Virus record (IMG/VR): IMGVR_UViG_2541047916_000004 | Direction: 5' to 3' (one strand) | Source of the DNA: a virus | Taxonomy: Duplodnaviria > Heunggongvirae > Uroviricota > Caudoviricetes | Length of the DNA: 31,226 bases | Shown here: positions 1,422 to 20,297 of the stretch, piece after piece | Layout of the letters: every line of letters starts with the position of its first letter | Numbering within the stretch: the first letter of the stretch is position 1 | The notes under the pieces: model-generated | Told to the model about the DNA's origin: nothing | Seen by the model: the letters and a program-made list of their open reading frames with translations, nothing else | The model's database searches: none | Translations under genes and position numbers: made by a program

Positions 1422-3893
1422 TTAAAAATCAGCCTGACTCGGGATCAGTTTTTGCCAGATAACTGAAACGTATTTTGCCTGGTAACGGGCGTCATCAAGT
1501 GCATTATGGCGCTCACCTTCGAATGGAATAGCCGTTCTGGCATCGAAGTCTATGGCTTTCCCCAGCTCAACGATTGTGCGTACATCGCGATCGTTGTAGT
1601 AACGCCACGGGCAGGGGATCCCCTGCCGTTCGTATGAACGGCGCAAAATCGTGTTGTCGAAGTTGGCTCCATTTCCCCAAACCTGAACAAAAAATTCACC
1701 GGAGTTTTCGTCGATAAATTCCCGCAATTGTAACAGTGCATCATCTAACGGGATTTCATCGGTCATAATGGCAGATTGCGCTTCGCGTGATTGCTTAAGC
1801 CACCATTTAATGGTGTCCCGATCAATGACTCCGCCAGCAGTTTCCAGATCGATAGTCTTACTAAATTCCGGTCCCATATCTCCGGTTTGCGGATCGAAAA
1901 ATATTGCACCTATTGAGATGATCGGGGCATCAGGATTTTTTCCCATGGTTTCAAGGTCGATCATTAGATGGTCACACGTCCTGCTGGTGGATGTGATTTC
2001 GTGATGACCGTTCACCTTAATTGAGCGATCTGCCGTCTCGCCAGTTTCATTATCGCTATCGTGATGCTGATTGCCGCCAGTGTTCTCCTTGTGTGGATGT
2101 TCAGCGCCTTCCATTTCCTCCGGATCATCTTCCTGAACTTCAACCTGATACTCTTCATCGAATGTTTCCTGGTATGTTGCGTCGCCCATCACCGCGCCAC
2201 AATCAGGGCAGTTGCCGCCGCCGGTCTGACCGCAGGCGGTGCAGACTTTTTCCACTTCCTGTTGCGCCACTGGTTCAGGCTGTTTCGTTTCTGGCTCGTT
2301 TTGTAACGCATTTGGGCTGTTTTGTTCCGCTTTTTGGTAGTTCCGTTCCGATTCATGCTGGTTCTGGTTCACAGAATCGCGGGTCTGGATCCCCTTAACC
2401 CATTTCGGATCATTCGGGTCACTAATCCCTTCAACAAATTCACCACGTGATGCAGCAAGCAACTTATCGGCGTCAGGCTGGCTGATATTGGCTGCCTGCA
2501 TAATTTTGTTTACTTCGTCAGCGGTAACTTTTATCGGCTCTGGTTGTTCTGAATCTTCAGCGGTATCTACATTTTGCGGTAAGCCCGTGTATGTGCCATT
2601 TTTTCGGGCAAAATATTCTTCTTTTGTGATTTCAGTGGCGCCAGCAGCCAGTGCCTTATCCAGACCAGAAAGTTTGTTTGCGCGACCGCATTTTTCTCCG
2701 TCCTTATCTGCGAAGAGGAAATAGAACGGCCCCTCACGCTCTACAGATGGTTCAGCTTCCGGCGCGGTTTCATTTTTTGGGATATCAGATACCTCAGTTT
2801 CCACTGCATCAGTTTGTGTTTCTGATGACTGGAGAACATCAACAGTGCCCAGGTCTGTTTCTTCATTCTCAAACACGCCCTTTGTCGTCAGGTATTCGCA
2901 GATATATTTGTTCAGTGCTATGGGATCTTTGTGAATGTCGATCGGACGCTCACGGACAAGGCCAAAAATAGTTTGGCGGTCGTAGCGAAGGGCATCAGGC
3001 TGTTTGCGCATTGATGCCGAGATACGCTTCCAGTCTTCGCGGTCGTTGTCGATAACTTCATTTTTTGCCCAGCGATGGATGCTGCCGTCAATGTTTCCGG
3101 CATCCACATCACCAGGCCAGAGAGCGTAGGCCAGTTCGTCATCCAGTGTTTTCCATGTCTGCTTGTATTCGCGATGAATGGCAGCAATGACCGGGCTGAT
3201 TTTTCCTGTTGAATTTTCACTGTGCTGTTGATTGGTTCTGGCGCGGGCGAGATCAATAACAGACGTGTATTTTCCGGTTTCCTTACGTTCACCTTCGCGA
3301 CGTTTTTTCCAGATGCGCATCTCTGCCTGAATTTCGGGCCATTTGGCACCAGGCTTACATTTATGCTTAACCCACCCGATGGCATGCAGCTTAAGCTCCG
3401 GATACATGGCGTTAACTTCTGGCATTTTCATCAACGCTTCAACGATATGTCCGTCGAATGTTGCCATGTCTTCCTGCAACAATTCCTGTGCGCTAATAAC
3501 CATATCAACGGTGATGTTTTCACATGTGTCGAACTTAACCATGACAGCGTTCTGTACTTCAGGGGCCAGCTTGTCAAAAGTGACGTTCATCGGATCGGAT
3601 TCAGTCTCAACCGGGACAAAGGAAGCAGACTCCTCATCCCAGCGGTTTTCCTGCATATATTCAGCATCCCAGGAATCGAGGGCAGGGCGGGGTATGCCGG
3701 GTTTATCCTCACAGACAATAAATTTATAAGCGCAGTCCTGAGCTGCAGGGAATTGCTCCAGAAATTGCCAATGAAATTTTGCGCGTGCGCGACGCTCATC
3801 ACCAGCTTCAATGGCAGTGGCCACCGCAACAGCGCTATCTTCTTTTATGGCCTGTTCATCAGGAATAGCAGCGCAAATAAAGACCTTACTCAT
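1422..3893 (-). CDS. Large phage exonuclease with C-terminal DnaQ-like DEDDh 3'-5' exonuclease domain
   Basis: 823-aa ORF; C-terminal 200 aa carry Exo I (MIDLETMG), Exo II (VWGNGANFDNT) and Exo III (HNALDDARYQ) motifs; acidic N-terminal region contains a CTACG...CPDCG zinc-ribbon-like motif. Confidence 0.75.
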   Translation of the reverse strand: MSKVFICAAIPDEQAIKEDSAVAVATAIEAGDERRARAKFHWQFLEQFPAAQDCAYKFIVCEDKPGIPRPALDSWDAEYMQENRWDEESASFVPVETESDPMNVTFDKLAPEVQNAVMVKFDTCENITVDMVISAQELLQEDMATFDGHIVEALMKMPEVNAMYPELKLHAIGWVKHKCKPGAKWPEIQAEMRIWKKRREGERKETGKYTSVIDLARARTNQQHSENSTGKISPVIAAIHREYKQTWKTLDDELAYALWPGDVDAGNIDGSIHRWAKNEVIDNDREDWKRISASMRKQPDALRYDRQTIFGLVRERPIDIHKDPIALNKYICEYLTTKGVFENEETDLGTVDVLQSSETQTDAVETEVSDIPKNETAPEAEPSVEREGPFYFLFADKDGEKCGRANKLSGLDKALAAGATEITKEEYFARKNGTYTGLPQNVDTAEDSEQPEPIKVTADEVNKIMQAANISQPDADKLLAASRGEFVEGISDPNDPKWVKGIQTRDSVNQNQHESERNYQKAEQNSPNALQNEPETKQPEPVAQQEVEKVCTACGQTGGGNCPDCGAVMGDATYQETFDEEYQVEVQEDDPEEMEGAEHPHKENTGGNQHHDSDNETGETADRSIKVNGHHEITSTSRTCDHLMIDLETMGKNPDAPIISIGAIFFDPQTGDMGPEFSKTIDLETAGGVIDRDTIKWWLKQSREAQSAIMTDEIPLDDALLQLREFIDENSGEFFVQVWGNGANFDNTILRRSYERQGIPCPWRYYNDRDVRTIVELGKAIDFDARTAIPFEGERHNALDDARYQAKYVSVIWQKLIPSQADF

Positions 3894-3988
3894 TTTGTTT
3901 TAACCTCATTACAGATTTCAGGGTGAACGAATCCCTGCCATTGCTGGCATTTTTAATCCGTTGGTATGGTGTTAATATGGCTGGAGGG

Positions 3989-4177
3989 TTATCCAGCCGG
4001 TGTTTCGTTATTCAGGTACAGCGATACTTTTTTTAGCGGGAGGCATTCACCAGAAATTTTTTGCTCGTCTCTTGCCTGGAGGCAGGATTCTTTACTTGCA
4101 TAAATTCCGGTAATCACATTCTGTGATTCACCCGTTATAAGAAAAACCGTCATCATCAGTGCAAATGCTGAAGTCAT
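3989..4177 (-). CDS. Hypothetical small protein with N-terminal hydrophobic signal/TM segment
   Basis: 62-aa ORF in an AT-rich stretch; start ATG overlaps stop of the upstream 62-aa ORF (ATGA), suggesting translational coupling; N-terminus MTSAFALMMTVFLITG is hydrophobic. Confidence 0.45.
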   Translation of the reverse strand: MTSAFALMMTVFLITGESQNVITGIYASKESCLQARDEQKISGECLPLKKVSLYLNNETPAG

Positions 4178-4362
4178 TGACGTTCTCCGAAAATACCAAG
4201 TTCAAGAAGAGCAATTCGGGAAAGTATGGAATTATCATTGAGCAGATAAGGCTCATATTTCCTCATATTAATGGCATCTTCAGTAAACTCCCGGTTACTG
4301 AGCAGAACACCAATATCAAAACAACCTTCAGACGTATTAACGTTTGGTAATAACGTTTCCAT
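4174..4362 (-). CDS. Hypothetical small protein
   Basis: 62-aa ORF, AT-rich, coupled by ATGA overlap to the downstream ORF; no recognisable motif. Confidence 0.45.
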   Translation of the reverse strand: METLLPNVNTSEGCFDIGVLLSNREFTEDAINMRKYEPYLLNDNSILSRIALLELGIFGERQ

Positions 4363-4933
4363 TATCGCGTCCTCAACAATGAATTTTGTGATGCAGTGCC
4401 TGGTGCCTCCAGGTGACGTTAACCAGTTAACAATTAACTCCGGGTTAGTTGATGCTCGTTACGCCCGTAAAATACCGCCTTACTGCTTTAACTGTTCCGC
4501 GTGCGCATAGCCGCATTCACCGCATCACAAAATTCACTTTAAAAAGGGCGGCAGAGCAGTCACGGAGTAAAACTGATACCGCCAAATGTCACCAGAAAAT
4601 TGATAACAGAGGGCGTTGTAGCGGGGTTGTCACTTAAGCGTATGGTCAACCTGACAACCCGGTGCATTTTCTGGAGCAATGGAGGAAACCCCAGCCATAC
4701 TTACCGCCGCGCCATTTCGCGGAGTGCCACAACCGGAAGCGCACGGTCGAACTAAATTTAACGACACCGTACAGAGAGACCAATTTCGCCGTGCGCTTTC
4801 GCGTTATGCCCTGACTTTTCAGGGACATATCCTTTCAGTAAGCTGTCAGTGCCGGATGCTCACCCGTGTCCGGCGCACGCACTCCACCTGACCCGTGGAG
4901 AACTCCTTAATTACCAACCCTCAGGAGGGTGAA

Positions 4934-5212
4934 ATGGATAAAAAGCAAATTGAGGCCCTGCAATCTATTATTGAAGAACAAGATGAAGCTATCAGGATTC
5001 TTTCATATCGCACTGATATGATACTAAATATGCTTTCTGCATTAACGGCTGCGCTTGGTGGTACAAAAACAAACGTATACCGCGAAGTTGTTATTCAACA
5101 GATAGATAAATTTGAAAAAACCATACCAGGTATTAATGCTCATCTTGCAGAACAAGAGAAAGACCATGCTCTTATGGCAATTTCTTCAGTAGCTCTCCCG
5201 AAAGTTGAGTAG
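4934..5212 (+). CDS. Hypothetical protein, predicted coiled coil
   Basis: ATG preceded by GGAGGG Shine-Dalgarno 6 nt upstream; 92 aa (MDKKQIEALQSIIEEQDEAIRIL...); AT-rich codon usage distinct from neighbours; opposite orientation to the surrounding leftward operon. Confidence 0.5.
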   Translation: MDKKQIEALQSIIEEQDEAIRILSYRTDMILNMLSALTAALGGTKTNVYREVVIQQIDKFEKTIPGINAHLAEQEKDHALMAISSVALPKVE

Positions 5213-5585
5213 TTTTAATTGTTGTTTTGAAATAATCACTGCTTTCACATTTGAGTGATTTCATGGCAATCCAAATGCGGGCCTCTGTGCCTGCATTTGG
5301 TTCCAGTTGCTGTAGACGTTTTGCGTCTTCCAAAAGTAAGGCGATAATGTGTTTCAGCTTCTCATCATTTGCTTGATTCTTGTTTTCAGGCGAATTCTGT
5401 CCGCCGAATAGGCGCTTCTCTTCATACAGACCTATAAAGGCACGACGCACGTTACCGGATATAGTATCGATGGTTTCCTTTTCTACGGTACTCAGGTCAA
5501 GAGTCGCCAGTTGAGAGCGAACCACATTCGATGCCATTTCCTGGAATGGTACTGGTAAATCTTTAAATTCCATCGTCAACCTCAT
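5172..5585 (-). CDS. Hypothetical protein
   Basis: 137-aa ORF; start overlaps stop of upstream 77-aa ORF by 1 nt (TGATG); 3' end overlaps the convergent + strand ORF by 41 bp. Confidence 0.5.
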   Translation of the reverse strand: MRLTMEFKDLPVPFQEMASNVVRSQLATLDLSTVEKETIDTISGNVRRAFIGLYEEKRLFGGQNSPENKNQANDEKLKHIIALLLEDAKRLQQLEPNAGTEARIWIAMKSLKCESSDYFKTTIKTTQLSGELLKKLP

Positions 5586-5818
5586 CAGTCAGTGTTTCTG
5601 GTTAACCAGCGACGCGCGCCAGCTTCAGTTTTAAACGTTTTGCTTCTGGTATACGTCATCGCGGTGAACGTACCGTCCTGGTTGGGGAACACGCCACATA
5701 CCAGAGATTCGCTGTTGCCAAGATCGATAGTATCCATGCTGACCTCATTTCCCCTTAACGCCGGGGTAGCGGAACAAAAACCTGCTGCATAGTTATTAAA
5801 GTTGAACCCTGCCGTCAT
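5585..5818 (-). CDS. Hypothetical protein
   Basis: 77-aa ORF, first gene leftward of the repressor and its downstream operator-like palindromes. Confidence 0.5.
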   Translation of the reverse strand: MTAGFNFNNYAAGFCSATPALRGNEVSMDTIDLGNSESLVCGVFPNQDGTFTAMTYTRSKTFKTEAGARRWLTRNTD

Positions 5819-5923
5819 GTTCTTACGCCTCGGGCTGGCTACTTAACCCCTGACCACTGCCTGGTAACTCGAAGTATTGCCCTGCATTCTGTGGGGCGGG
5901 GTGGGTTGGTATGAAAAGAAGGA

Positions 5924-5960
5924 TACCCATAGGTATTTAAAAAGTAAATACCCATGGGTA
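5924..5960. promoter_or_regulatory. OL-like operator cluster: two TACC-N4-GGTA palindromes
   Basis: TACCCATAGGTA (5924-5935) and TACCCATGGGTA (5949-5960) downstream of the repressor gene and upstream of the leftward genes; same consensus as the sites in the divergent region at 6443-6493. Confidence 0.45.
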
Positions 5961-6002
5961 AATTTTTGCGGTGTCTTAACTGGTGACTAGTTGTTTGGTG
6001 AG

Positions 6003-6422
6003 CTATGATGCGTTTTGTGCTTTCTTTTTACGGATTTCTTCGTAGATCATATTGTAATACTGTTTTTTCTCTTCAAGAGTTTTTAATAATTTATCCGCTT
6101 CACTTTCTGGCAGTTCGTCTAAGAGATCTAAAAAAATACGTTGTCGTGGCGTTAGAACCCTTGTTTCATAACTGGAGGCTGTGTTCGTTGATGATGAAAC
6201 GATACCATCCATCCATCCCCGGGGTAACCCAAAGGACTCTTCGATAATCTCCACCATATCATCAGCGATCCGTTTTTTTCCCTTTTTCCCCTCTGGGTAC
6301 AACATTCTTGATACATAAGAAGGCTCGCGCCCGATCTTTCTGGCCACGTTAACCGCTTTACCATCGCATTTCTCATCACGAATTTTGATGAGTTGCTGTC
6401 GTCTAAATTCATATTTGTCCAT
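6003..6422 (-). CDS. Putative CI-like prophage repressor (HTH)
   Basis: 139-aa ORF divergent from a Cro-like gene; segment AVNVARKIGREPSYVSRML resembles an HTH; flanked on both sides by palindromic operator-like sites. Confidence 0.6.
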   Translation of the reverse strand: MDKYEFRRQQLIKIRDEKCDGKAVNVARKIGREPSYVSRMLYPEGKKGKKRIADDMVEIIEESFGLPRGWMDGIVSSSTNTASSYETRVLTPRQRIFLDLLDELPESEADKLLKTLEEKKQYYNMIYEEIRKKKAQNAS

Positions 6423-6522: not shown

Positions 6523-6804
6523 ATGGAAGAATTAAGAATATTTCTCAATTCTCTTTCGTCAGATGAACAGCGTATGTTTGCATGCGAGTGTGGTACCAGC
6601 ATCGGTTATCTAAGAAAGGCATTGAGTAAAGGTCAAGTGTTAGGGGCATCGTTATGTGTCCTTATTGAGCGAGCCAGTAATGGTGAAGTTACACGTCAGC
6701 AACTAAGGCCTTTTGATTGGATGAATATTTGGCCCGAGCTGGAAGATACCAAAACGTTAACACAACCACTTTCTAGGAGCTTGATTCATGAAAATCAAGC
6801 ATGA
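6523..6804 (+). CDS. Cro-like HTH regulator (YdaS-like)
   Basis: 93-aa ORF divergent from the repressor; MFACECGTSIGYLRKALSKGQ is HTH-like; first gene of the rightward operon; resembles the Rac-type ydaS architecture. Confidence 0.65.
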   Translation: MEELRIFLNSLSSDEQRMFACECGTSIGYLRKALSKGQVLGASLCVLIERASNGEVTRQQLRPFDWMNIWPELEDTKTLTQPLSRSLIHENQA

Positions 6805-11024: not shown

Positions 11025-11261
11025 TTTTATGGATCACCTTTCTGATTGATTTCATATTGGCGAGGTGACGTGAGTTAAGTAGAATGGCTGCGGGTGCTTG
11101 AGGCTATCTGTCTCAGGCATGAACACTGAAAGGCAGATAGAGAAAAGCCCCAGTTAACATTTCGCGTCCTGCAAGACGCTTAACATTAATCTGAGGCCCA
11201 ATCTATGTCTCACAAATGTAGGTTAGCCTCTTACGTGCCGAAAGGCAAGGGGAAGCAGGCT

Positions 11262-11417
11262 ATGAAGCAGCAAAAGGCGATGTTAATCGCCCTGATCGTC
11301 ATCTGTTTAACCGTCATAGTGACGGCACTGGTAACGAGGAAAGACCTCTGCGAGGTACGACTCCGAACCGGCCAGACGGAGGTCGCTGTCTTCACAGCTT
11401 ACGAACCTGAGGAGTAA
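11262..11417 (+). CDS. hok: Hok/Gef family type I toxin
   Basis: 51-aa peptide MKQQKAMLIALIVICLTVIVTALVTRKDLCEVRLRTGQTEVAVFTAYEPEE, near-identical to Hok/RelF-family toxins; the longer in-frame ORF from 11205 is probably an artefactual extension. Confidence 0.85.
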   Translation: MKQQKAMLIALIVICLTVIVTALVTRKDLCEVRLRTGQTEVAVFTAYEPEE

Positions 11418-15627: not shown

Positions 15628-15703
15628 GGCCCTTTAGCTCAGTGGTGAGAGCGAGCGACTCATAATCGCCAGGTCGCTGGTTCAAATCCAGCAAGGGCCA
15701 CCA
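15628..15703 (+). tRNA. tRNA-Ile2-like (anticodon CAU; ileX/ileZ-type)
   Basis: 76 nt cloverleaf: acceptor GGCCCTT/AAGGGCC, D-arm AGCTCAGTGGTGAGAGC, anticodon loop CTCATAA, T-loop TTCAAAT, ACCA tail; closely resembles E. coli ileX. Confidence 0.85.
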
Positions 15704-15710
15704 TCACATA

Positions 15711-15787
15711 CCGCCATTAGCTCATCAGGAAAGAGCGCCAGCTTTCGAAGCTGGTTGCGCGGAGTTCGGGTCCCCGAAGGCGGTCCA
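15711..15787 (+). tRNA. tRNA-Arg(UCG)-like, possibly degenerate
   Basis: D-arm GCTC...GAGC and anticodon stem-loop CCAGC-TTTCGAA-GCTGG are clean; acceptor stem has one mismatch and the T-arm is non-canonical (loop TTCGGGT, mismatched stem). Confidence 0.45.
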
Positions 15788-15800
15788 TTATCTGTATCCT

Positions 15801-15877
15801 GCGTTGTTAGCTCAGCCGGACAGAGCAATTGCCTTCTAAGCAATCGGTCACTGGTTCGAATCCAGTACAACGCGCCA
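15801..15877 (+). tRNA. tRNA-Arg (anticodon UCU)
   Basis: 77 nt: acceptor GCGTTGT/ACAACGC, D-arm GCTC...GAGC, anticodon stem-loop ATTGC-CTTCTAA-GCAAT, T-arm ACTGG-TTCGAAT-CCAGT, GCCA tail. Confidence 0.85.
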
Positions 15878-15920: not shown

Positions 15921-16142
15921 TCTCACAATTCAGGCGGTTGACTGTTGTCTGGTTTGCGGGGAGTTTGTTAAAAGAAACTGGCATGGTGAATCCCCCTGTG
16001 CGGAGGGGCAATCAGCGAGTAGGTATATGGGATAATCGCGGATTCAGGTGCTGGTACTGAATTCACCGGGAGGCACCCGGCACCATGCAATGGCACATAG
16101 CGCCACTCTCCAGCCCCTCTCCGGAGGGGCTTTTCTGTGCCG
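15921..16142 (+). repeat. Copy A of a tandem paralogous hairpin-rich element (candidate sRNA unit)
   Basis: Shares with copy B the blocks CTCACAATTCAG..GTTGAC, GCATGGTGAATCCCCCTG(T/A)GCGGAGGGGC, GGTATA..ATAATC, TGAA(T/C)TCACCGGGAGGCACCCGGCACCATG and AGCCCCTCTCCGGAGGGGCTTT (terminator-like hairpin plus T-run); sequence between blocks differs. Confidence 0.45.
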
Positions 16143-16390: not shown

Positions 16391-16625
16391 TCACAATTCA
16401 GTAAGTTGACAGTTGCCTGTCAGACTGGGCATTTGTTAAAAAAATTTCGCATGGTGAATCCCCCTGAGCGGAGGGGCGACTGGTGACGGTATAATCTCTG
16501 ATTATCAAAACGAGAATGACGCGGGTTTAGTGGCACCGGGTTGAACTCACCGGGAGGCACCCGGCACCATGTGCATGATGATACAGATACGCGGCTTTAG
16601 CCCCTCTCCGGAGGGGCTTTCTTAT
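16391..16625 (+). repeat. Copy B of the tandem paralogous element (candidate sRNA unit)
   Basis: Same conserved blocks as copy A in the same order, including a perfect TATAAT (GGTATAATC) and the terminal GCCCCTC-TCCG-GAGGGGC hairpin followed by TTTCTT. Confidence 0.45.
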
Positions 16626-16629
16626 GGAC

Positions 16630-19763: not shown

Positions 19764-20297
19764 ATGAACGCAAAAATCAGATACGGCCTGTCGGCTGCCG
19801 TTCTGGCGCTGATTGCCGCTGGTGCGCCTGCGCCTGACATTCTCGACCAGTTTCTGGATGAAAAGGAAGGTAACCACACCACGGCATACCGTGATGGCGC
19901 GGGTATCTGGACCATCTGCCGCGGTGCCATCCTGGTGGATGGCAAACCTGTCGTTCCGGGCATGAAGTTGTCGAAGGAAAAATGCGACCGGGTTAACGCC
20001 ATTGAGCGTGATAAGGCGCTGGCATGGGTGGAGAAAAACATCAAAGTGCCATTGAGCGAACCCCAGAAAGCGGGGATCGCGTCATTCTGTCCGTACAACA
20101 TTGGTCCCGGTAAGTGTTTCCCGTCGACGTTTTATAAACGAATTAATGCAGGTGATCGCAGGGGAGCGTGTGAGGCGATTCGCTGGTGGATTAAGGACGG
20201 TGGCAGAGACTGCCGTATTCGTTCAAACAACTGCTACGGTCAGGTATCCCGTCGTGACCAGGAGAGCGCGCTGGCGTGCTGGGGTATCGACAGATAA
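19764..20297 (+). CDS. R: SAR endolysin (T4-lysozyme-like, GH24)
   Basis: 177-aa ORF; N-terminal signal-anchor-release segment LSAAVLALIAAGAPAP; catalytic region EGNHTTAYRDGAGIWTICRG; functional partner of an S21-type pinholin. Confidence 0.9.
   Translation: MNAKIRYGLSAAVLALIAAGAPAPDILDQFLDEKEGNHTTAYRDGAGIWTICRGAILVDGKPVVPGMKLSKEKCDRVNAIERDKALAWVEKNIKVPLSEPQKAGIASFCPYNIGPGKCFPSTFYKRINAGDRRGACEAIRWWIKDGGRDCRIRSNNCYGQVSRRDQESALACWGIDR

Follow-up and report, generated by a model that had tools for sequence, protein, structure and literature searches.

A coupled gene pair of a lambdoid prophage is a diverged form of the dicB-ydfD segment of the dicBF operon

Introduction

The closest described system to the locus analysed here is the dicBF operon of the Qin prophage of Escherichia coli K-12. 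There, a polycistronic ydfABC-dicFB-ydfD message is transcribed from the promoter dicBp, which is repressed by DicA, and DicF is produced through the processing of this transcript by the RNases III and E (PMC10448788). The order of the genes in K-12 is dicA, ydfA, ydfB, ydfC, dicF, dicB, ydfD, ydfE (an exonuclease remnant) and intQ, with ydfA coding for a DUF1391 protein.

The DicB protein of K-12 binds MinC, and the complex reaches the septum via ZipA and depolymerises the FtsZ ring; furthermore, this MinC-dependent activity of DicB also inhibits ManYZ, which leads to around 100-fold resistance to lambda and to other ManYZ-dependent phages (PMC6832061). Its N-terminus (roughly residues 1-14) is essential, with L5 being critical and K2 replaceable, while the last 8 residues are dispensable and C-terminal deletions of 12-20 residues weaken the protein (PMC4967827). 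Moreover, DicB has a potent toxicity of its own (PMC4967827, PMC10448788).

The protein encoded by the next gene, YdfD, lyses K-12 cells on induction, in such a way that lysis requires ongoing division (PMC8835842, PMC11430063). This lysis is blocked by the co-expression of DicB (PMC8835842, citing Masuda 2016; PMC11430063), and equally by SulA, a protein unrelated to DicB (PMC8835842). K-12 YdfD was reported to bind IspG, and over-expression of ispG, or HMBPP, rescued the cells. A fusion of the protein was soluble and could be purified, residues 1-28 are able to bind IspG, a cytoplasmic enzyme, cysteine mutants still bind it, and lysis needs an intact N-terminus; the IspG mechanism comes from pull-down, FRET and rescue data of one laboratory, without enzyme kinetics (PMC8835842).

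Here, we analysed a pair of small overlapping genes in a virus sequence. A preliminary description of this DNA had suggested that the pair could be a toxin/immunity or an exclusion module.

Results

The window, i.e., the whole stretch of DNA that was analysed, comprises 31,226 nucleotides of the IMG/VR record IMGVR_UViG_2541047916_000004 (Caudoviricetes). The preliminary description had noticed in it two 62-aa ORFs on the minus strand, coupled by an ATGA overlap, in an AT-rich stretch just upstream of a large exonuclease gene, and the three observations were borne out. The ORFs, of 62 codons each, are found at 4174..4362 (-) and 3989..4177 (-), and a 95-nt spacer separates them from the downstream exonuclease ORF (1422..3893, minus strand). 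The G+C content of the pair is 39.8%, versus 51.6% for the window, and less than 1% of the 374-nt windows show a lower value. The features of the region are the following:

6523..6804, cro-like ORF, divergent from the repressor gene
6003..6422, minus strand, immunity-region gene for a DicA/CI-like repressor, located upstream of the operon (position and orientation as K-12 dicA)
5585..5818, minus strand, ydfA-like DUF1391 gene, promoter-proximal in the leftward (dicBF) operon (PF07151, 93 bits)
4546..4597, minus strand, dicF, DicF sRNA with its terminator hairpin (Rfam RF00039)
4363..4545, minus strand, untranslated dicF-dicB spacer with the Shine-Dalgarno site of dicB (comparison with K-12)
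4174..4362, minus strand, dicB, 62-aa cell-division inhibition protein, diverged "W-type" allele (PF05358, NF049927)
4174..4177, minus strand, ATGA stop/start overlap from dicB to the ydfD-family gene (read from the sequence)
3989..4177, minus strand, ydfD-family gene, DUF1482 protein of 62 aa that is homologous to the Qin lysis protein YdfD of K-12 (PF07358, phrog_1092)
1422..3893, minus strand, exonuclease gene, here full-length, which corresponds in K-12 to the pseudogene ydfE (PF16473, RefSeq "exonuclease")

The small RNA gene dicF lies 184 nt upstream of dicB on the same strand, and it matches the full Rfam model (1-52) with 77 bits, the gathering score being 48. A hit of STnc100 in the spacer between dicF and dicB reached 27.7 bits, short of the gathering score (47), and was rejected as a member of that family. 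A Shine-Dalgarno-like GAGGA is located 7 nt 5' of the start of dicB, and a second one, GGAG, 7 nt 5' of the start of the ydfD-family gene and within the 3' end of dicB. Upstream of the operon, the repressor ORF shows a weak match to the NCBIfam DicA model (24.5 bits, below the cut-off), and the ydfA-like gene occupies a position equivalent to that of K-12 ydfA. Downstream of the pair, the product of the exonuclease gene (823 aa) matches the Rv2179c-like 3'-5' exonuclease domain PF16473 through its residues 642-813, with 226 bits, and xis and int come next. When an intrinsic terminator was looked for after ydfD, the hairpin detected (3978-3999) overlaps the stop codon and has no U-tract on the minus strand, so that termination at this point is unsupported. 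Along with these genes, the prophage retains int, xis and exo, an immunity region, replication genes, Q and a holin-endolysin cassette.

The identity of the upstream gene was established by its matches to the DicB families, with 125.5 bits for Pfam PF05358 (cut-off 27; full length, 1-62 of 62 residues) and 114.2 bits for NCBIfam NF049927 (cut-off 100). The protein is identical to RefSeq WP_000449175.1, annotated as "cell division inhibition protein DicB", and shares 63% identity with K-12 DicB. Nearly all of its homologues belong to Escherichia, and a few to Salmonella and Citrobacter. Residues 1-14 of the protein are METLLPNVNTSEGC and those of K-12 are MKTLLPNVNTSEGC, the sole difference being K2E, and L5 is invariant across 20 variant sequences. 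Because this segment is conserved save for K2E, and L5 does not vary, division inhibition is very likely retained in the W-type protein, by analogy with K-12. Residues 32-62 show 48% identity to K-12 at the DNA level, and since this part is diverged and C-terminal deletions weaken K-12 DicB, the potency or the partner specificity of the W-type protein may differ from those of its K-12 homologue. No sequence relative of DicB was found in the PDB, and the AlphaFold2 model of the protein was of low confidence (pLDDT 62, pTM 0.35) and was discarded.

The downstream gene encodes a DUF1482 protein, as shown by its matches to PF07358 (54 bits, cut-off 25, 1-57 of 57) and to phrog_1092 (115 bits). The protein is identical to RefSeq WP_000199473.1, annotated as "DUF1482 family protein", and 44% identical to K-12 YdfD over its full length. 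It fits the length of the family (around 62-67 aa) and keeps all the family-invariant residues, namely L7, G16, C32, Q39, C45, P47 and P60-A61. The properties of K-12 YdfD would be carried over to this 44%-identical homologue by analogy, all those invariant residues being kept. DUF1482, which also includes YebW of K-12, is a narrow family, with 30 clusters at 50% identity in a search of 1.84 billion representatives, and a scan with one degenerate DUF1482 pattern gave a single locus among the GTDB species representatives (E. ruysiae, with a K-type pair). Both protein families of the pair are recognised in PHROGs, with the label "unknown function".

The preliminary description had stated that motif evidence was absent for this pair. 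This reflects no more than a reading made without tools, as both ORFs match curated families (PF05358 and PF07358), and with E values of 6e-37 and 1.5e-14 these matches rule out chance ORFs for the two genes.

The same description had read the N-terminus of the downstream protein as signal or transmembrane-like. Its hydrophobic character stands, as the protein opens with a run of 16 uncharged, mostly hydrophobic residues (MTSAFALMMTVFLITG), but its reading as a signal is not supported. The protein could in principle be exported or anchored to the membrane through an N-terminal Sec signal or a transmembrane anchor, with its two cysteines forming a periplasmic disulfide, and act on the envelope like a membrane-embedded single-gene lysis or exclusion protein rather than on IspG. 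Apart from the run itself, such a possibility agrees with the small residue G16 that follows it, a potential -1 cleavage position with I14 at -3, with the invariance of C32 and C45 across the DUF1482 family, and with the need of an intact N-terminus for lysis in K-12 (PMC8835842). The 19-residue Kyte-Doolittle maximum of K-12 YdfD, 2.00, also fits with it. However, in the window protein this maximum is 1.31 (0.98-2.00 in the family), under the mean of more than 1.6 over around 19 consecutive residues that was taken as the transmembrane criterion. Moreover, none of the 18 DUF1482 members compared (the window protein and 17 others) has K or R within its first six residues, and the hydrophobic run spans 9-17 residues, with Q, H, G, S or C breaking it up in several of them. 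A core of 9-17 residues is compatible with a signal peptide, and the I-T-G before E17 makes a possible but weak -3/-1 site.

A structural model points in the same direction. The AlphaFold2 prediction of the YdfD homologue, built from a 15-sequence alignment, has a mean pLDDT of 80.5, with the blocks of residues 1-50 at 81-92, and corresponds to a compact beta-beta-alpha-beta domain, in which residues 5-12 would form the first strand (pLDDT >80), paired in a hairpin with residues 18-26, with a helix next (29-39) and a third strand after it (44-47). Also against export are the results with K-12 YdfD, purified as a soluble fusion, with residues 1-28 binding the cytoplasmic IspG and with cysteine mutants that keep their binding (PMC8835842). 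Altogether, we consider the export or anchoring of the protein unlikely; the N-terminal segment is predicted to be a strand buried within a small globular domain, which we judge more likely than a signal or transmembrane role. This globular-fold reading bears on the presumed mode of action of YdfD. A sequence search of the PDB gave no DUF1482 relative, and the comparison of the model with PDB structures by Foldseek yielded no hit with E < 1, for which reason a weak likeness to small phage inhibitors (e.g., p56) was set aside.

In the comparison with K-12 at the DNA level, identity is mosaic along the segment from dicF to the exonuclease gene:

dicF, 98%
spacer, 5' part (4486-4545), 93%
spacer, variable patch (4441-4485, 45 nt), 40%
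spacer, 3' part and Shine-Dalgarno site before dicB, 99%
dicB, codons 1-31, 88%
dicB, codons 32-62, 48%
ydfD, 54%
spacer between ydfD and the exonuclease gene, distal part (3957-3988), 31%
same spacer, part immediately upstream of the exonuclease gene (3894-3956), 86%

From this mosaic pattern, the cassette exchanged with respect to K-12 is the second half of dicB plus the whole ydfD.

The conservation of the pair was analysed in an IMG/VR survey of 160 loci, retrieved with either DicB type, 158 of which were evaluable. An intact pair with its ATGA junction was detected in 146 of these 158 loci, and the exact W-type pair of the window in 31 loci. In the other 12 (~8%), ydfD was frameshifted, truncated or start-less, and such a proportion of damaged genes indicates that selection on ydfD is not absolute. 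In the 146 loci, W-type DicB always goes with W-type YdfD and K-type with K-type. This matching is not absolute either, judging from the loci L248-L250, in which a K-type DicB precedes a chimeric YdfD of 67 aa, W-like in its N-terminal half. The matching of types was considered as a sign of direct interaction and rejected, given that the two genes overlap and that the chimeras of L248-L250 exist. Among complete E. coli genomes, the homologous locus was found in 4628 of 5426 (~85%), and the W-type arrangement, at a query coverage of at least 80%, in 1017 of 5426, roughly a fifth.

The picture is different in other genera. Lambdoid phages of Klebsiella carry DUF1482 in the same slot of the leftward operon, upstream of exonuclease/recombination genes, and ATGA-coupled to a small ORF, but in 80 of 80 loci this partner is a 37-aa basic ORF (phrog_22279) that is unrelated to DicB. 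In a Citrobacter phage, the partner of DUF1482 is a 66-aa ORF (phrog_3722), also unrelated to DicB. Thus, the pairing of DicB and DUF1482 is conserved within Escherichia but is not obligate across genera, and from the loci compared the pair is a unit within Escherichia and not outside. For the preliminary description, conservation of the pair as a unit in related prophages was a point on which its proposal depended; this was found within Escherichia (the 146 loci with an intact pair), whereas the Klebsiella and Citrobacter phages use other partners. Since the DUF1482 genes of these other genera keep the ATGA coupling to differing small genes, the comparison hints that the conserved requirement could be coupled expression and not DicB itself.

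Discussion

The data presented here support, with a probability that we estimate at around 0.9, that the pair is made of dicB and a ydfD-family gene and is the distal protein-coding part of a dicBF operon, which would be the leftward early operon, under repressor control, of a lambdoid prophage integrated next to ompW. The identity of the genes, the anatomy of the operon, the conservation of the coupled pair and the mosaic structure of the alleles were directly observed in this work, while we infer each biochemical step from K-12 experiments on homologues with 63% and 44% identity. Such a transfer would be strong for DicB, whose critical 14 N-terminal residues are conserved, and weaker for the YdfD homologue.

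According to this analogy, relief of the prophage repressor would lead to a single polycistronic transcript that covers the ydfA-like genes, dicF, dicB and ydfD and runs towards exo-xis-int. DicF would be excised from this transcript to repress the translation of ftsZ, and DicB, translated from its own Shine-Dalgarno site, would bind MinC, in such a way that the DicB-MinC complex, recruited to the septum through ZipA, would dismantle the FtsZ ring and division would halt. This MinC-dependent activity would also inhibit ManYZ and thereby block the entry of DNA from lambda-like superinfecting phages. The ydfD-family gene would be translated in step with dicB by means of the ATGA overlap and the internal Shine-Dalgarno site, and its product would lyse dividing cells, like its K-12 homologue, for which the binding and inhibition of IspG (MEP isoprenoid pathway) have been reported. 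The DicB produced at the same time would restrain this lysis, since lysis needs ongoing division. The protection by DicB would be indirect, via division arrest, because the unrelated SulA equally blocks the lysis by YdfD.

The pair is already known, as RefSeq annotates identical proteins and the homologous pair of K-12 has been studied experimentally; in GenBank phage records it is likewise annotated as DicB and DUF1482/YdfD. It has little weight as a discovery, as the dicB-ydfD segment of this operon is textbook material. The preliminary description had counted assignment to a known phage function as evidence against its proposal, and the assignment is to DicB and the DUF1482/YdfD family. On the other hand, the published experiments on DicB and YdfD were all performed with the K-12 allele, and the W-type, which includes that of EHEC-type prophages, differs from it over half of DicB and over most of YdfD.

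A bolder reading of this divergence is that the replaced cassette (residues 32-62 of DicB and the whole YdfD homologue) could represent a matched functional unit in a variant form of different specificity, whose halves would have co-diverged by acting together, either directly or on a shared host partner, and in which the "membrane" N-terminus of DUF1482 would be the core strand of a soluble beta-beta-alpha-beta inhibitor domain. If this were true, the targets or the potency of the window pair could differ from those of the K-12 pair. We regard this proposal as speculative and rather improbable.

The guess of a toxin/immunity or exclusion module was right in part, given that in K-12 YdfD is a lysis toxin restrained by DicB and that DicB excludes ManYZ-dependent phages. 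It falls short in that the protection is indirect and also exerted by SulA, DicB is toxic by itself, and the pairing is not obligate across genera. In its strict form, it would mean a true two-component module, with a cytoplasmic partner that binds directly to a toxin with a hydrophobic N-terminus and neutralises it. The ATGA coupling would allow the co-ordinated synthesis of both proteins, and the co-expression of DicB abolishes the lysis by YdfD in K-12 (PMC8835842, PMC11430063). The types of the C-terminal part of DicB and of YdfD are matched in 146 loci, and the swapped cassette is exactly the C-terminal half of DicB plus ydfD. However, SulA suppresses the lysis equally well (PMC8835842), which argues for division arrest and not for binding, and a potent toxin such as DicB (PMC4967827, PMC10448788) does not fit the role of an immunity protein. 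The matching of types is a trivial consequence of overlap and adjacency and is broken by the chimeras of L248-L250; DUF1482 has other, unrelated small ORFs as its coupled partners in Klebsiella (80 of 80 loci) and in Citrobacter phages; and K-12 carries a solitary DUF1482 gene, yebW. In addition, neither protein matched the PADLOC models of defence systems. For these reasons, a direct toxin/immunity module appears very unlikely. It is hardly credible that either ORF, or both, is a remnant in decay that serves no function in the window prophage at present, in spite of the damage to ydfD in 12 of 158 related loci and of the presence of the operon in cryptic prophages of many strains (PMC5069750), as both ORFs are full length with intact starts, Shine-Dalgarno motifs and family-invariant residues, the identical protein pair recurs in 31 loci, and the prophage around the pair has kept its int, xis and exo genes as well as Q, replication genes and the immunity region.

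With the pair taken as dicB plus a ydfD-family gene, its nearest counterpart among characterised systems is that of K-12 Qin (b1575-b1576). Both loci share the order dicF, dicB, ydfD, exonuclease and integrase, the 4-nt ATGA overlap (dicB 5610-5798 and ydfD 5795-5986 in locus L001 of K-12) and the protein lengths (62 and 62/63 aa). They differ in that ydfE and intQ are pseudogenes in Qin, whereas the window has an intact 823-aa exonuclease gene, xis and int, in such a way that, from its gene content, the window prophage looks much more complete than Qin. The arrangement dicF, dicB, 4-nt overlap, ydfD, exonuclease, xis and int is also that of phage Tritos. A prophage of E. coli AR_0013 is likewise next to ompW and carries the W-type pair with 99.9% DNA identity and identical proteins, the window being colinear with it at >99.5% identity over the first 20 kb. 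In EHEC O26/O157-like strains, the lambdoid prophages of the PPompW type and the Stx2a phages (e.g., LC567818-LC567841) have the same ompW site, operon and W-type pair, with 91% DNA identity in the case of the PPompW phages. They show no difference of substance from the window, the PPompW YdfD-like proteins being 84% identical to that of the window.

Farther from the window, Klebsiella and Citrobacter phages (e.g., MK416013) share with it the conserved residues of DUF1482, the slot and the ATGA coupling, and differ in that they have no dicF and that the upstream partner is not DicB. YebW of K-12 has the same conserved residues, but its gene is solitary and outside a prophage. As for function, YdfD has been framed together with the single-gene lysis proteins E of phiX174, A2 of Qbeta and Lys of M, all of them small, able to lyse growing cells and blocking the supply of cell-wall precursors (PMC8835842). 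There is no homology between these proteins and YdfD, and its reported target, IspG, is different. The YdfD homologue is not the main lysis system of this tailed temperate phage, because the phage also carries a holin-endolysin cassette.

Regarding DicB, its functional counterparts are Kil of lambda and KilR of Rac, to which it is not known to be related in sequence. Kil is active on FtsZ/ZipA independently of MinC, which DicB requires. Nevertheless, Kil and KilR are small division inhibitors encoded in a repressor-controlled leftward early operon near recombination genes, a niche like that of DicB.

The dicB-DUF1482 Pair in Related Loci

The coupled pair formed by dicB and the ydfD-family (DUF1482) gene shifts between distinct upstream contexts, since in the E. 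coli prophages L248-L250 a Phage_ASH/pRha gene lies 5' of it, 11 nt away from the dicB-DUF1482-exonuclease (exo) segment, and no dicF was found ahead of that segment. In Klebsiella lambdoid phages, DicB itself is replaced as the partner of DUF1482 by a 37-aa basic ORF (MNDFARKPARQQAVRLSPLSAFIRRVCYMLAQKGDPS; phrog_22279), joined to it by an ATGA overlap. This ORF was coupled to DUF1482 in 80 of the 80 Klebsiella loci (L168-L247), and in some Klebsiella loci it has an extended form of 73 aa.

L003 (Klebsiella lambdoid phage), 3391..3504: 37-aa basic ORF, phrog_22279
L248-L250, 1451..2305: 284-aa Phage_ASH/pRha protein, directly 5' of dicB-DUF1482-exo

Around 8% of the related IMG/VR loci (L006-L165) showed a damaged ydfD next to an intact dicB, the damage consisting either of frameshifts, in such a way that products of 30-59 aa are left, or of the loss of the ATG, by which the ATGA becomes ATAA or GTGA. 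Two database proteins (P0203 and P0205) carry the DicB and DUF1482 domains on a single chain, a form that apparently arose from a frameshift fusion at the dicB-ydfD overlap.

Surroundings of the Pair

Two ORFs lie between the ydfA-like gene and dicF, and two inverted repeats were located near the operon:

4895..5212, plus strand: 105-aa ORF, phrog_18692 (E = 1e-62; family function unknown)
5172..5585, minus strand: 137-aa ORF, phrog_1363
3978..3999: hairpin overlapping the ydfD-family stop codon, G+C-rich stem of 7-8 bp
5924..5960, minus strand: long palindrome (stem of 16 bp, T-run behind it) in the interval that separates the ydfA-like gene from the gene for the DicA-like repressor

The 105-aa ORF is oriented opposite to the surrounding leftward dicBF-type operon, converges with the 137-aa ORF with an overlap of 41 nt, and lies in a patch of 38% G+C; it looks like a moron-style insertion in the interval between the ydfA-like gene and dicF. 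The palindrome occupies the position expected for dicBp with its operators or, alternatively, for a terminator behind the repressor gene. The hairpin at the ydfD stop codon was ruled out as an intrinsic terminator because no U-tract follows it on the coding strand, and in the comparison of the window with K-12 it was not conserved. For the 131-nt spacer between ydfD and exo, folding was better than for shuffled versions (z = -3.1).

RNA Elements and Other Prophage Cargo

Searches against Rfam, together with the tRNA genes, gave the following features:

4330..4548, minus strand: sub-threshold STnc100 match, dicF-dicB spacer
11092..11267, plus strand: sok antitoxin RNA (120 bits)
15628..15877, plus strand: cluster of three tRNAs, anticodons CAT, TCG (Arg) and TCT (Arg)
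15952..16142, plus strand: STnc100 sRNA copy
16420..16629, plus strand: STnc100 sRNA copy

Both plus-strand STnc100 copies are strong (136 and 160 bits), and they sit between the tRNA cluster, directly 5', and the gene for a 617-aa esterase, 3'. The dicF-dicB spacer reached 27.7 bits, below the threshold of 47. The CACCUGGAGGCACCAGGCAC core common to this spacer and the STnc100 copies, taken with the matches themselves, suggests that an RNA element is repeated in the early-left and late regions of the prophage.

The tRNA cluster is located 3' of two genes, one for a DNA methyltransferase and one for the antiterminator Q, and its CAT-anticodon member is named tRNA-Ile in RefSeq. The sok RNA is the marker, within the prophage, of a type I toxin-antitoxin locus of the hok/sok kind (hokD-like).

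Compared with the ompW prophage of E. coli AR_0013, the window is colinear over about 20 kb at >99.5% identity, and from around position 20000, near the lysis genes, both are wholly divergent, with an IS3 fragment and a group II intron on the AR_0013 side.
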